A stretch of 64,000 nucleotides of DNA, taken from NCBI GenBank assembly GCA_037444485.1, contig JBBIMI010000001.1, positions 50,110 to 114,109 on the forward strand, read 5' to 3'. The stretch comes from Candidatus Micrarchaeota archaeon (lineage in GTDB: Archaea > Micrarchaeota > Micrarchaeia > Norongarragalinales > Norongarragalinaceae). Positions 36,071 through 58,302 of this stretch are shown piece after piece. The translations under genes were made by a program, and so were the position numbers. The number at the start of each line of letters is the position of its first letter. The stretch's first letter is position 1. The notes beneath the pieces were generated by a model. The model was not told the origin of the DNA. It searched no databases and saw only the letters and a list, made by a program, of their open reading frames with translations.

Positions 36071-36419
36071 CTAGTATTAATAACTAGTTGCTGGCTTTTA
36101 GCCCGCTAAACTCAGGAATTCAAGAAAAGAAACTTCAAGAAAAGAAAAACAAAATAAAAAACAATGTAAAAAACAACAAAACCAAACTACAAAAACTAAA
36201 CAACAAAAACAAAAGGGGAGCGTAACAAGAGTGTTTTAGAAATTTTTTCTAAAACTTTTTTTGTTTGCCTCTCTTTTGCTTCTTTCTTTTTCCTTTTCTT
36301 TTTTTCTCTTTTTTTCATCGCGTTCGTTGCGCCGCGTCGTCTCACCCGCAGAATCAAGTGACGTGTTTTTACTTTTTTTCTTTTTAGAATAGCGGGGGGA
36401 GGATTTGAACCTCCGACCT

Positions 36420-36465
36420 TTACCCGGAAAAAAGTTTTTTTGACTTTTTTGAAAACTTTTTCCCT
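36420..36465 (-). other. tRNA-iMet intron at 43/44 (46 nt)
   Basis: Central helix ACCC/GGGT, bulges GG|A and AA|A, inner helix GGGAAAAAG/CTTTTTTCC. Confidence 0.87.
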
Positions 36466-36501
36466 CCGGGTTATGAGCCCAGCGGGCACTCCTGGCTACC
36501 C

Positions 36502-36534
36502 TTAGAGCACCACCAACCACAAAATCGATGTTGT
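36502..36534 (-). other. tRNA-iMet intron at 9/10 (33 nt)
   Basis: Central helix GGGG/CTCT, bulges TA|A and AA|G, inner imperfect hairpin. Confidence 0.8.
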
Positions 36535-36614
36535 TACCCCGCTGTAGTTTCGGAGTGCGTTTAAAGAATAAGTTGTGCGTGGTTATAATACTTTCTGGAA
36601 ATACGTTTAGACGT

Positions 36615-37193
36615 TTAATCAAACGGTCGAATTTTTGGTTGAACTTTCGAGAACGAATTTTGGGTGTTTTGCTGTGGGATTTTCTCCAAGATTTTTTTAA
36701 TAGTCTTAATGCGGGTTTCTATCTTTTTCAATTCTCGCTTGTTATCGTAAAAATTCATTTTCGACTCGCATTTCGGGCAACGGAATCGCTCTTCCATAGC
36801 GACATCGAACGGCAGCAGCGTGCAACCACGCCTGCACTTGTAAAACATCGTTTTCTCCGCTTCTAAAGTTTTTCGCGCGAGTTCCTCGTACTCCCTCTGC
36901 TTTACAGCAATAAAATTTTGAAACGCTCGTCCAGCATCGCAACGCCAAGTGTAAGTAAACCAGCCGCTGTTTAGGTTCTTTTCGCGGTGGTATTCGACAA
37001 GTCCGTATTTGTGCAACACGTTGAGAAGCGAGCGGATTTCAGCCATCTTGATTTTGGTTTCCCGCTCGATTTTCTCGTCGGTCGCGCCCTCCCCATTGTA
37101 AAGAGAGTTTATTATCTTCATGCCTTTGCGTCCGGAAATTTCTTGGACGTAATCGAAAAAGTGTTTCGTGAAGAAATCTAGTTTTTTCTTCAT
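36615..37193 (-). CDS. tfe: Transcription factor E alpha
   Basis: wHTH with TDEKI and SGWFTYTW; Zn ribbon CRRGC...FRCPKC. Confidence 0.92.
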   Translation of the reverse strand: MKKKLDFFTKHFFDYVQEISGRKGMKIINSLYNGEGATDEKIERETKIKMAEIRSLLNVLHKYGLVEYHREKNLNSGWFTYTWRCDAGRAFQNFIAVKQREYEELARKTLEAEKTMFYKCRRGCTLLPFDVAMEERFRCPKCESKMNFYDNKRELKKIETRIKTIKKILEKIPQQNTQNSFSKVQPKIRPFD

Positions 37194-37951: not shown

Positions 37952-38079
37952 GGGCTCGTAGCTCAGCTTGGCAGAGCGACCGGCTCTTAAGCGAAAAACT
38001 AAGCGAAAAACAGCAAGCGTTGTTTTTCTCGCGGTTTCGGGAAACCGGTAGGTCGAGGGTCCGAATCCCTCCGAGCCCG
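37952..38079 (+). tRNA. tRNA-Lys(CTT) with 54-nt anticodon-loop intron (about 37990-38043)
   Basis: GGGCTCG TA GCTC AGCTTGGCA GAGC G ACCGG CTCTTA[intron]A CCGGT AGGTC GAGGG TCCGAAT CCCTC CGAGCCC G. Confidence 0.9.
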
Positions 38080-39130: not shown

Positions 39131-39239
39131 CGAGTTATATGCGGCAAGCACATGCAGCGAGTATAAATACTTTTTTCGTTAAATTATTTTTGTTGATTTG
39201 TGTTGTTTCGTAGTCGCGGCCAAGCCGCCTTGCAGGGAT

Positions 39240-39278
39240 TGCGTTTGCATGAGTTGAGTTTTTGCGTGACGCACTTAA
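39240..39278 (+). other. tRNA-Cys intron at 8/9 (39 nt)
   Basis: Central helix AGGG/ACTT (3 of 4 pairs), bulges AT|T and AA|G, inner GCGT/ACGC, outer TTGC/GCAG. Confidence 0.8.
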
Positions 39279-39306
39279 GGCAGAGCGGCCATGCGCCCGC
39301 CTGCAG

Positions 39307-39346
39307 GTGTTGTTCCTGCACTGTTGCGTGGGTGCTGGATGCAGTA
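39307..39346 (+). other. tRNA-Cys intron at 37/38 (40 nt)
   Basis: Central helix CTGC/GCAG perfect; 3' bulge TA|A. Confidence 0.88.
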
Positions 39347-39352
39347 AGCGGG

Positions 39353-40300
39353 TTAGGCGAGTTCGACTCTCGCTCCCTGCTTTATCGCGCTGATAACGCG
39401 CGCGTTAGCGCGCTTGGCTTGCTCTTCGTTTAAGCCTTTCGTAATCACGTTGCCGTTAGGCAGCAAAACTATCTTGCCTGGACGCGTTTTTAATTCGATG
39501 ATGCGTTTTGTTTTTAAGCCGCGCACGTTGTTTTGGAAAAAGTATTCTTTGTTACCGCATAACGCGAATGCTGGCGTGGAAGCGTCGTCAGCCTCAACGA
39601 TTTCCTGGTTTTTTTCGGCAATGTTTTTTTTTGTTTTTGGGCTGCGTGCACACGCGACGCACGCCAAGTTTTTTTGTAGGTTTATGGTTGTTGAAGCGCC
39701 AGTTTTCTTGTCAGCGTAAAAAAGAATTCCGGCGTAACGCGGCTTGCCTTCAAGCAAACTAATCAATTCTTCAACTTGTTTTTTCGCGGCTAAAGCGGTT
39801 GCAGTTGGAGAAATTCCTTCCACGCTGCAGCTTCGCGGCAGCGTTTGTTTTGGATTCCAGCAAGCAAAGCAAGGCGTTTTTTCTGGAATTATTGTTGAAA
39901 TCATGACTTCGCTGCGTATTGCGGCAGAGAAAATCCATGGCTTGCGCGCGCGCAAGCAGTACTCGTTCAAGACGAAGCGCGTTTGAACGTTGTCTGTGCA
40001 GTCTAGCACGATATCCGTTTTTTCAAGCAATCGCGTAACGTTCCATTGGTTTAAGTGTTCGGTGGAGGCAATCACGTTCGCGCCAGACTTCTCTAATTTT
40101 TTTTTGGCTGCTGCGGCTTTGAGAAAGCCGACGTCGCCAGCATCGAATAGTTTCTGCCTCGGCAAGTTGTTTTGTTCGATAAAGTCTCTATCGATTAAAA
40201 CAAGTTTTTGGAAGCCTGTTCTCGCTAGTTGTAATGCGGTGTTCGCGCCTATCCCGCCGACTCCGACTACTGCAACTACTGTATCCAGTGTTTTTCGCAT
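39353..40300 (-). CDS. ThiF/MoeB (E1-like, UbaA family) adenylyltransferase
   Basis: VVGVGGIG, IDRDFIEQNNLPRQ, LDCTDN, TPCFAC, CVAC. Confidence 0.88.
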   Translation of the reverse strand: MRKTLDTVVAVVGVGGIGANTALQLARTGFQKLVLIDRDFIEQNNLPRQKLFDAGDVGFLKAAAAKKKLEKSGANVIASTEHLNQWNVTRLLEKTDIVLDCTDNVQTRFVLNEYCLRARKPWIFSAAIRSEVMISTIIPEKTPCFACWNPKQTLPRSCSVEGISPTATALAAKKQVEELISLLEGKPRYAGILFYADKKTGASTTINLQKNLACVACARSPKTKKNIAEKNQEIVEADDASTPAFALCGNKEYFFQNNVRGLKTKRIIELKTRPGKIVLLPNGNVITKGLNEEQAKRANARVISAIKQGARVELA

Positions 40301-57670: not shown

Positions 57671-57805
57671 TTTTCTTCTCCTCCGGCAGTAAGCCTGCTT
57701 TTGCAGGCATTTTCGCCCAACTAGTTGAAAAACATTAGAAAAAAAGGGTTTTTAAACTTGAGTCAACCTCGCTGCCAGTGAATTAAATAAGCGGGCCCGC
57801 CGGGA

Positions 57806-58033
57806 TTCTCGTGCACTTTTTTCTTAAATTTTTTTCTTTTCCTAACAGTTTTTTTTTAAGTCTCTCCAATTCTTTCTTTTCCAAGGTTTTTTCTTTTCTT
57901 TAAAGAAAAAAGCTTTTTTCCAAGGTTTTTTCTTTTCTTTAAAGAAAAAAGCTTTTTTCCAAGGTTTTTTCTTTTCTTTAAAGAAAAAAGCTTTTTTCCA
58001 AGGTTTTCTTTCTTTCCAAGAAAGAAAAGCTTT
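57806..58033 (-). other. tRNA-Arg T-loop intron at 59/60 (228 nt)
   Basis: Central helix TTCG/CGAG, bulges AA|A and AA|T, T-stem as outer helix. Confidence 0.82.
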
Positions 58034-58035
58034 TT
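57881..58035. repeat. 39-nt tandem repeat, three exact copies plus one variant
   Basis: CCAAGG starts at 57881, 57920, 57959 and 57998; no spacers. Confidence 0.9.
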
Positions 58036-58054
58036 CGAACCCGGGACCACGGCT

Positions 58055-58103
58055 GTCCGCAAACACGCCTGCTTTTTCAGCGGTTTTCTTGCGTCCGCGT
58101 TTT
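58055..58103 (-). other. tRNA-Arg intron at 37/38 (49 nt)
   Basis: Full BHB: helix TTGC/GCGG, bulges GG|A and AC|A, inner AAACGCG/CGTGTTT. Confidence 0.9.
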
Positions 58104-58302
58104 CCGCAAGCCGTTAGTTTATCCAGGCTAGCCTACGGGCCCGTTTTGCAAACAATTTTTGGCGTTTCTTGATTAAATAATGTTGTTGTAGGCGAGTGGG
58201 AGTGGCTTATAAAAACTAGTGAGTGCAAAACTTTTTGTTTATTTTCGTTTTTTAGTAAAGGTTTAATTCCGGGTTTTTTGTTTTTTCGGTGGGTGGTTTA
58301 TA

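Follow-up and report, generated by a model that had tools for sequence, protein, structure and literature searches.

An initiator tRNA gene with two introns, at 9/10 and 43/44, in a Micrarchaeota genome

Does a stretch of archaeal DNA in which ARAGORN reports no tRNA gene anywhere hold the gene for the initiator tRNA? The stretch, hereafter the window, is the whole 64,000-nucleotide segment analysed here, from the genome of a Candidatus Micrarchaeota archaeon (GenBank assembly GCA_037444485.1). A sequence-only reading of it had proposed that positions 36390–36543 encode an initiator tRNA whose gene is interrupted by one intron after tRNA position 9 and another after position 43, each folding for excision with bases borrowed from a stem of the mature tRNA. 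We assessed this proposal computationally, through the product of splicing, the motifs at the exon–intron junctions, related genomes, the splicing enzymes and the predicted folding of the precursor.

The three exons were joined by script from their coordinates (Table 1), and the spliced product was run through ARAGORN, which identified it as a 75-nt tRNA-Met(cat) spanning positions 1–75. The reported cloverleaf contains an A1:U72 pair, a 7-bp acceptor stem, stems that are all paired, the anticodon CAU inside a 7-nt loop and the G-C pairs 29:41, 30:40 and 31:39 at the base of the anticodon stem. The hallmarks of archaeal initiator tRNAs are A1:U72 and this uninterrupted triplet of G-C pairs. 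Thus, excision of the two proposed introns does yield a tRNA of the archaeal initiator type.

Table 1 Features of the initiator tRNA locus, other interrupted tRNA genes and the dispersed repeat. Plain coordinates refer to the window; G000 denotes this genome and C numbers its contigs. Census, splice-and-scan census (see text).
Feature	Location	Strand	Details
Initiator tRNA-Met(CAU) gene, whole	36390..36543	minus	pre-tRNA body 154 nt; CCA not encoded
Exon 1	36535..36543	minus	9 nt; tRNA positions 1-9
Intron 1	36502..36534	minus	33 nt at 9/10; relaxed HBh′; site shared with 23 other genomes
Exon 2	36466..36501	minus	36 nt; positions 10-43; D arm and anticodon arm, anticodon CAU
Intron 2	36420..36465	minus	46 nt at 43/44; HBh′, 13-bp inner helix
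Exon 3	36390..36419	minus	30 nt; positions 44-73; variable loop, T arm, 3′ acceptor strand, discriminator A
G4-G7, exon strand of intron 1 central helix	36537..36540	minus	in mature acceptor stem, same bases pair C66-C69
CUCU, intron strand of intron 1 central helix	36504..36507	minus	
A38-C41, exon strand of intron 2 central helix	36468..36471	minus	
GGGU, intron strand of intron 2 central helix	36422..36425	minus	
Candidate archaeal TATA box TATTATAA	36583..36590	minus	inferred; 40-47 nt 5′ of the first tRNA base
tRNA-Leu(GAG)	G000 C8:5133-5361	minus	introns 8/9 (45 nt) and 22/23 (99 nt)
tRNA-Cys(GCA)	39232-39381	plus	introns of 35 nt in D loop and 40 nt at 37/38 (census)
tRNA-Gln(CUG)			intron 21/22 (census)
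tRNA-Gln(UUG)			introns 21/22 and T loop (census: 58/59; helix and bulges match 59/60 introns)
tRNA-Val(CAC), tRNA-Val(UAC)			intron 59/60 (census)
tRNA-Ala(UGC)			introns 37/38 and 59/60 (census)
tRNA-Pro(GGG), tRNA-Glu(CUC), tRNA-Arg(CCU)			D-loop intron (census)
tRNA-Arg(GCG)	57792-58142	minus	49-nt intron near anticodon and 228-nt T-loop intron
~39-nt repeat, example sites	G000 C16:9118-9282, C5:4240-4360, C5:27460-27595, C12:15344-15437, C29:6716-6848		

The candidate TATA box upstream of the gene is consistent with its relatives, because most of 16 orthologues whose upstream sequences were compared by eye carry an A/T-rich box roughly 33–48 nt upstream. Inspection of the 3′ flanking sequence found no clear run of T nucleotides, and no C/D-box guide RNA was seen by eye in either intron.

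A slide of either intron by one base leaves the spliced product unchanged (8/9 or 9/10 for the first intron, 43/44 or 44/45 for the second). Cleavage of a bulge–helix–bulge motif falls after the second base of the bulge. We applied this register, with a 4-bp central helix and two 3-nt bulges on opposite strands, to each junction. For intron 1, all four central pairs form only at 9/10, between G4–G7 of the acceptor stem and CUCU of the intron, whereas the slid 8/9 register retains two of four. For intron 2, all four pairs form at 43/44, between A38–C41 and GGGU, and the sole other register listed that gives the same product (after linear position 48) has one of four. Both the sites and exact boundaries of the sequence-only reading and its placement of the helices on G4–G7 and on bases 38–41 therefore agree with the bulge–helix–bulge register.

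The two motifs are nonetheless not of the strict hBHBh′ form with both flanking helices h and h′. In intron 1, the central helix includes two G-U pairs, the inner helix is interrupted by a mismatch after 2 bp and the outer helix is a single pair, whereas intron 2 has no outer helix and an inner helix of 13 bp. Because the outer helices comprise only 1 and 0 bp, both motifs are classed as relaxed HBh′. With the register assumed from the bulge–helix–bulge rule, the bulges would be UA/A and AA/G for intron 1 and GG/A and AA/A for intron 2, the slash marking the cut. Relaxed HBh′ motifs are described as substrates of broad-specificity endonucleases in the consulted parts of Fujishima 2011 (PMC3239211) and Yoshihisa 2014 (PMC4090602).

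Orthologous genes were compared across the phylum. In the same family and order, 56 of 61 genomes matched the locus, and the mature sequence was aligned with long gaps allowed to 55 of these, G052 being left out as it had matched only intron-like sequence; the five genomes that gave no match are 69–89% complete. A phylum-wide sample of 151 genomes gave 130 matches, 112 of them outside the order, and of these we examined 55 (15 best matches, 20 partial matches and 20 drawn from the full matches), a selection that is biased towards interrupted genes because 20 were chosen for a partial match. The exons are conserved across all 110 genomes, and 55 of the genes are free of introns. The remainder carry one (38 genes), two (9) or three (8) introns, three being the maximum per tRNA gene stated in those parts of the literature that we consulted.

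These introns occupy eight sites. The 9/10 intron occurs in 24 of the 110 genomes, 20 inside the order and four outside it (families f17 and f19), and the 43/44 intron in 12. Others lie at 59/60 (15 genomes), 37/38 (13), 30/31 (10), 38/39 (3), 20a/21 (2) and 44/45 (1). Five genomes combine 9/10 with 43/44, namely the one studied here, G019, G022, G036 and G163. Within a single genus (g2), G010 has the 9/10 intron whereas G001 and G017 lack it, so that turnover is recent. A single orthologous gene with eight intron sites and zero to three introns in 110 genomes thus constitutes a compact data set on the gain and loss of protein-spliced introns. Long introns occur as well: two Micrarchaeota initiator genes (L091 in G140 and L093 in G101) have 37/38 introns of 281 and 302 nt, the latter with an internal direct repeat.

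Pairing in the central helix exceeds chance across orthologues. All four pairs form in 22 of the 24 introns at 9/10, where shuffling of the introns predicts 1.9, in 7 of the 12 at 43/44 (0.09 expected) and in all 10 at 30/31 (0.18 expected). The identity of base 5 and its intron partner, read by eye, follows a pattern that is weakly suggestive of pairing, given that the genomes are related and hence not independent: all five genes with A at base 5 have T as the partner, and the 19 genes with G at base 5 divide between C (10) and T (9).

That the endonuclease cuts one base away from the assigned bonds, at 8/9 or 44/45, in the same gene and with the same mature tRNA as outcome, is improbable. 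The identical products of the slid registers allow it, one orthologue (L003) fits 44/45 best with all four pairs, and the tRNA-Leu(GAG) gene of this genome has an intron whose motif fits 8/9. These points are outweighed by the loss of central pairs here, at 8/9 for intron 1 and in the sole alternative register listed for intron 2, and by the near-uniform fit of the orthologous introns to 9/10. We infer that cleavage would occur at 9/10 and 43/44.

The same comparison bears on the idea that the inserts are not spliced by an endonuclease at all and represent either assembly chimeras or mobile elements that have inactivated the gene. Such an origin might be suspected from a 33-nt core that intron 2 shares with an insertion of the 16S rRNA gene that also contains a repeat, and from other introns of the genome that consist of a dispersed repeat family (both described below). 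However, genomes from several families, assembled independently of one another, have insertions at exactly these two bonds, and every such insertion has a bulge–helix–bulge register of its own; the shuffle control indicates that random insertion would not preserve 4-bp helices with the flanking exon. In addition, a contig from sequencing run X1 covers positions 36391–36750 with zero differences and both introns present, although it is not independent support because X1 is probably the source sample. We regard this idea as having only the slightest likelihood.

Contigs of four DNA runs were compared in all. Two of the others, X16 and X2, show 47–48-nt ‘skips’ that we rejected as evidence on the locus, the matching sides being shorter than 30 nt and 85% alike; intron-free initiator genes of other organisms are their most likely source.

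We also scanned one genome for each of 185,579 species for an initiator gene with a 12–42-nt insert at 9/10. This yielded 35 stretches, and the records with an insert at the same place in the initiator gene are nearly all from Candidatus Micrarchaeota. The scan pattern was tailored to the exon sequence of that phylum, and its silence elsewhere is only weakly informative about other archaea.

Is the locus the only initiator gene of this organism? The assembly, which is 95% complete, totals 961,727 bases over 58 contigs. The sequences GCTCATAACCC and GGGTAGCCAGGAG each occur once in it, and the sole other occurrence of CTCATAACCC, on contig C33, has an alignment score of 35 against the mature sequence, compared with 132 for the initiator locus. 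A BLAST search of the locus against its own genome returned nothing besides the locus itself and a 33-nt match to intron 2.

Other CAU anticodons were sought in a splice-and-scan census of the genome, in which candidate motifs were removed by rule and the products were tested with ARAGORN; only high-scoring rows are used here. The census finds one other tRNA with a CAU anticodon, at C28:9498-9703, which has a 131-nt intron at 37/38, a G1:C72 pair and no G-C triplet, and is of the elongator type on the basis of the last two features. The tRNA-Ile found by the census uses UAU, in agreement with what the consulted part of Fujishima 2011 (PMC3239211) reports. A check for a second initiator gene, which the sequence-only reading had called for, thus finds 36390–36543 to be the sole initiator-type gene within the assembled 95%.

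The unassembled 5% leaves room, in an assembly of 58 contigs, for a working initiator gene of which the locus described here would be a decaying or silent copy. The first intron motif is weaker here than in relatives, and among the RNA runs searched for the locus none was found to contain it, as might be expected of such a copy. Yet the exons are free of defects, every stem pairs, exon 2 is 100% identical over query positions 52–90 to many relatives by BLAST, and both intron motifs retain their four central pairs. Furthermore, the nearest relatives, G019 and G022, carry the same two introns in the only match to the gene listed for each genome. A silent copy is therefore very unlikely.

The sequence-only reading had also warned that standard scans may miss this gene, which holds for both ARAGORN and the Rfam tRNA model. 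ARAGORN overlooks the unspliced locus with its intron option on or off, and there is no tRNA-Met among its 32 calls genome-wide with that option. An Rfam scan of the window reports a single tRNA, at 37952-38079, and the initiator locus is absent among the 24 matches of the genome to RF00005 at E ≤ 0.001. When the threshold is relaxed to E ≤ 10, the locus (genome C1:86507-86611) appears with 20.7 bits and an E value of 0.04 over model positions 9–63, where the cut-off is 29 bits. The tRNA-Cys(GCA) gene of the window is likewise missed by ARAGORN and by the Rfam scan of the window. A search routine for non-canonical introns is described for tRNAscan-SE 2.0 in the part of its documentation consulted. 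The only initiator tRNA gene found in the genome, together with many of its other tRNA genes, is therefore invisible to ARAGORN and the Rfam model, and automated annotation of DPANN genomes of this kind will list essential tRNAs as missing though they are present.

The genome encodes the enzymes that such introns would require. A single 388-residue protein contains the Pfam N- and C-terminal endonuclease domains, and its residues 13–388 align to residues 13–387 of PDB 4FZ2 (E value 6.8e-128). That structure shows the epsilon2 (three-unit) endonuclease from Candidatus Micrarchaeum acidiphilum ARMAN-2, which, according to the sections of PMC3239211 and PMC3488258 that we drew on, cleaves both strict and relaxed motifs and requires K161 to do so. 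Opposite the catalytic residues Y236, H251 and K282 and the loop lysine K161 of 4FZ2 the protein has Y, H, K and K in an alignment read by eye. The protein is a full-length homologue of the ARMAN-2 epsilon2 splicing endonuclease. Full-length homologues occur in 149 of the 151 sampled genomes of the phylum, a tally that includes the unpublished genome G087.

A match to the RtcB ligase is also present (E value 1.7e-149). At G000 C30:2925-4321, on the plus strand, profile positions 43–426 lie in a single 394-residue open frame, and profile positions 1–90 match upstream in a frame with stop codons. This split could be due to a frameshift, an assembly error or an insertion.

We consider it very likely that this locus, the sole initiator gene found in this DPANN (Micrarchaeota) genome of about 1 Mb, carries two protein-spliced introns that are processed by an epsilon2 endonuclease and RtcB. 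In the mechanism that we propose, the gene would be transcribed as a single precursor, probably from the TATA-like box about 40–47 nt upstream. Each intron, together with neighbouring exon bases, would then fold into a relaxed HBh′ bulge–helix–bulge, with CUCU of intron 1 pairing with acceptor-stem bases G4–G7 and GGGU of intron 2 pairing with A38–C41. The epsilon2 endonuclease, whose ARMAN-2 counterpart is known to process relaxed motifs in non-canonical positions, would cut within the 3-nt bulges and RtcB would join the exons, after which end processing and CCA addition would complete the tRNA.

When in the life of the transcript could these motifs form? We addressed this by energy calculations at 37 °C on protein-free RNA. 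The minimum for the full 154-nt precursor is −59.5 kcal/mol, in a fold with a complete acceptor stem (pair probabilities 0.89–1.0) and a probability of 0.0 for the central helix of intron 1. Forcing the intron 1 motif gives −47.1 kcal/mol, a cost of roughly 12 kcal/mol. The competition between this helix and the acceptor stem that the sequence-only reading foresaw is thus reproduced by the energy model, in which the acceptor stem wins in the full transcript.

For intron 2, the full precursor forms the central helix with probabilities of 0.89–0.99 and the anticodon stem with a probability of 0.007, and a fold constrained to the intron 2 motif lies 1 kcal/mol above the minimum. This helix, at probabilities of roughly 0.9–1.0, dominates the anticodon stem in every context tested. 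Because the central helices borrow bases of mature tRNA stems, the splice-competent fold and the cloverleaf are mutually exclusive, and the calculations predict that the anticodon arm cannot form until intron 2 has been removed.

Calculations on growing transcripts predict a short window of opportunity for intron 1. Its central helix has a probability of 0.88–0.97 when the transcript is 46 nt long, about 0.4 at 60 nt and 0.02 or less from 70 nt on. Beyond that length the G-rich 5′ end is predicted to pair with other C-rich partners and at last with the 3′ acceptor strand. Since the splice fold of intron 1 is predicted only before the 3′ acceptor strand is made, removal of this intron is probably early, during transcription, or aided by the enzyme.

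Splicing that is early and ahead of cloverleaf folding is therefore plausible under the energy model. The calculations back the sequence-only reading on this order of events, although its claim that splicing must precede cloverleaf folding is too strong, as the model ignores protein binding. The contest between the 9/10 motif and the acceptor stem provides a concrete case for asking if co-transcriptional splicing of archaeal tRNAs is possible, or even obligatory.

The closest known system is that of ARMAN-2, which is of the same phylum, has the three-unit endonuclease and carries non-canonical introns in many tRNA genes, as far as PMC3239211 and PMC3488258 were consulted. Fujishima 2011 (PMC3239211) describes, in the part used here, ARMAN-2 tRNA genes of which some have two introns and relaxed motifs and which are cut by the same type of enzyme. 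The ARMAN-2 sites named in the consulted parts of the two accounts are 53/54 and 59/60 (Pro and Cys) and 37/38 (Ile); the initiator, 9/10 and 43/44 are not named in those parts, and the full position tables (Table S2 and Figure S4) may list them.

More broadly, the portion of the review by Yoshihisa 2014 (PMC4090602) that we consulted gives archaeal sites as 3/4, 20/21, 22/23, 25/26, 29/30, 30/31, 45/46, 53/54, 56/57, 59/60 ‘etc.’. Neither 9/10 nor 43/44 is among the sites named in the review literature as far as it was consulted, a comparison confined to reviews as distinct from primary catalogues, and both are possibly absent from earlier lists. The suggestion that 9/10 is an unusual site accordingly fits the review list; within the phylum the site is common, and its occurrence in 24 of 110 genomes makes the finding less surprising. 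Disrupted tRNA genes are already known in Micrarchaeota, and the known picture of splicing is unchanged by our results and is extended to new sites.

Several features have counterparts in the Thermoproteales, for which up to three introns per gene, non-canonical sites and HBh′ or hBH motifs are described (Sugahara 2008, as cited in the consulted part of PMC4090602). An intron at 3/4 there (same source) resembles the 9/10 intron in that its motif must borrow acceptor-stem bases. Differences are that the Thermoproteales belong to another phylum, use an (alpha-beta)2 enzyme in place of the epsilon2 type found here, and have named sites, in that same partial account, without 9/10 or 43/44. In Thermofilum pendens (Chan 2011, again through PMC4090602 in part), the essential initiator likewise depends on the splicing endonuclease; that gene is circularly permuted, whereas the gene here is collinear with two introns.

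Non-canonical and double tRNA introns are common in this genome (Table 1). The census from which many of them come is incomplete, since only products whose T arm and acceptor stem are perfect pass, and it thereby misses, for example, Ala(GGC) and Lys(CUU), both of which ARAGORN finds. It also yields many low-scoring false solutions with ‘introns’ of 200–300 nt. Among its rows, one labelled ‘Pro agg’ and three labelled ‘Lys ttt’ (87–91 nt) are probably wrong splice solutions.

A repeat of approximately 39 nt is dispersed through many of these introns (Val 59/60, Gln 59/60, Thr 37/38, Glu 37/38 and others), with 91–98% identity over 45–68 nt. For instance, the 59/60 intron of Val(CAC) and the anticodon-loop intron of Thr(CGT), at 37/38 or 38/39, are 98% identical over 45 nt. 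In Arg(GCG), the T-loop intron contains a 39-nt palindromic unit in 4.1 copies at 94% identity, the array covering 57877-58035. The repeat also builds tandem arrays between genes.

The 16S rRNA gene (G000 C12; L123:1253-2422, minus strand; RF01959, 700 bits) contains insertions of 97 and 45 nt. The first has bulge–helix–bulge-like ends that delimit 95 nt, with a central helix of four out of four pairs and an inner helix of 12 bp, and it begins with the dispersed repeat. The 33-nt core of intron 2 of the initiator gene is identical at 31 of 33 positions, in inverted orientation, to a stretch inside this insertion. That core is all that intron 2 shares, and intron 1 shares nothing with the repeat.

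These introns resemble, by analogy, the intron transposition described for the Thermoproteales (Fujishima 2010, as represented in papers that cite it), in which near-identical introns occur across tRNA genes and positions. The module here differs in being a 39-nt palindromic repeat that is also present in intergenic arrays and in a 16S rRNA insertion. A speculative and rather doubtful extension is that Micrarchaeota are a live system of intron gain and loss, in which the dispersed 39-nt palindromic repeat seeds or expands bulge–helix–bulge introns in the 16S rRNA gene and, at several positions, in tRNA genes. If this were true, the initiator gene would be a mosaic record of the process over the phylum, with eight sites and presence that varies within one genus. 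The 9/10 intron would have been retained despite a kinetic race between its splice motif and the acceptor stem, and the supply of initiator tRNA would hinge on splicing during transcription, a step that could act as a point of control.

The initiator gene is not alone in this genome in having an acceptor-adjacent intron, because the 8/9 intron of tRNA-Leu(GAG) also places its motif on the acceptor stem, using bases 3–6 and the leader, in this case in the strict form. The 5′ leader of that gene duplicates the first seven bases of the tRNA.
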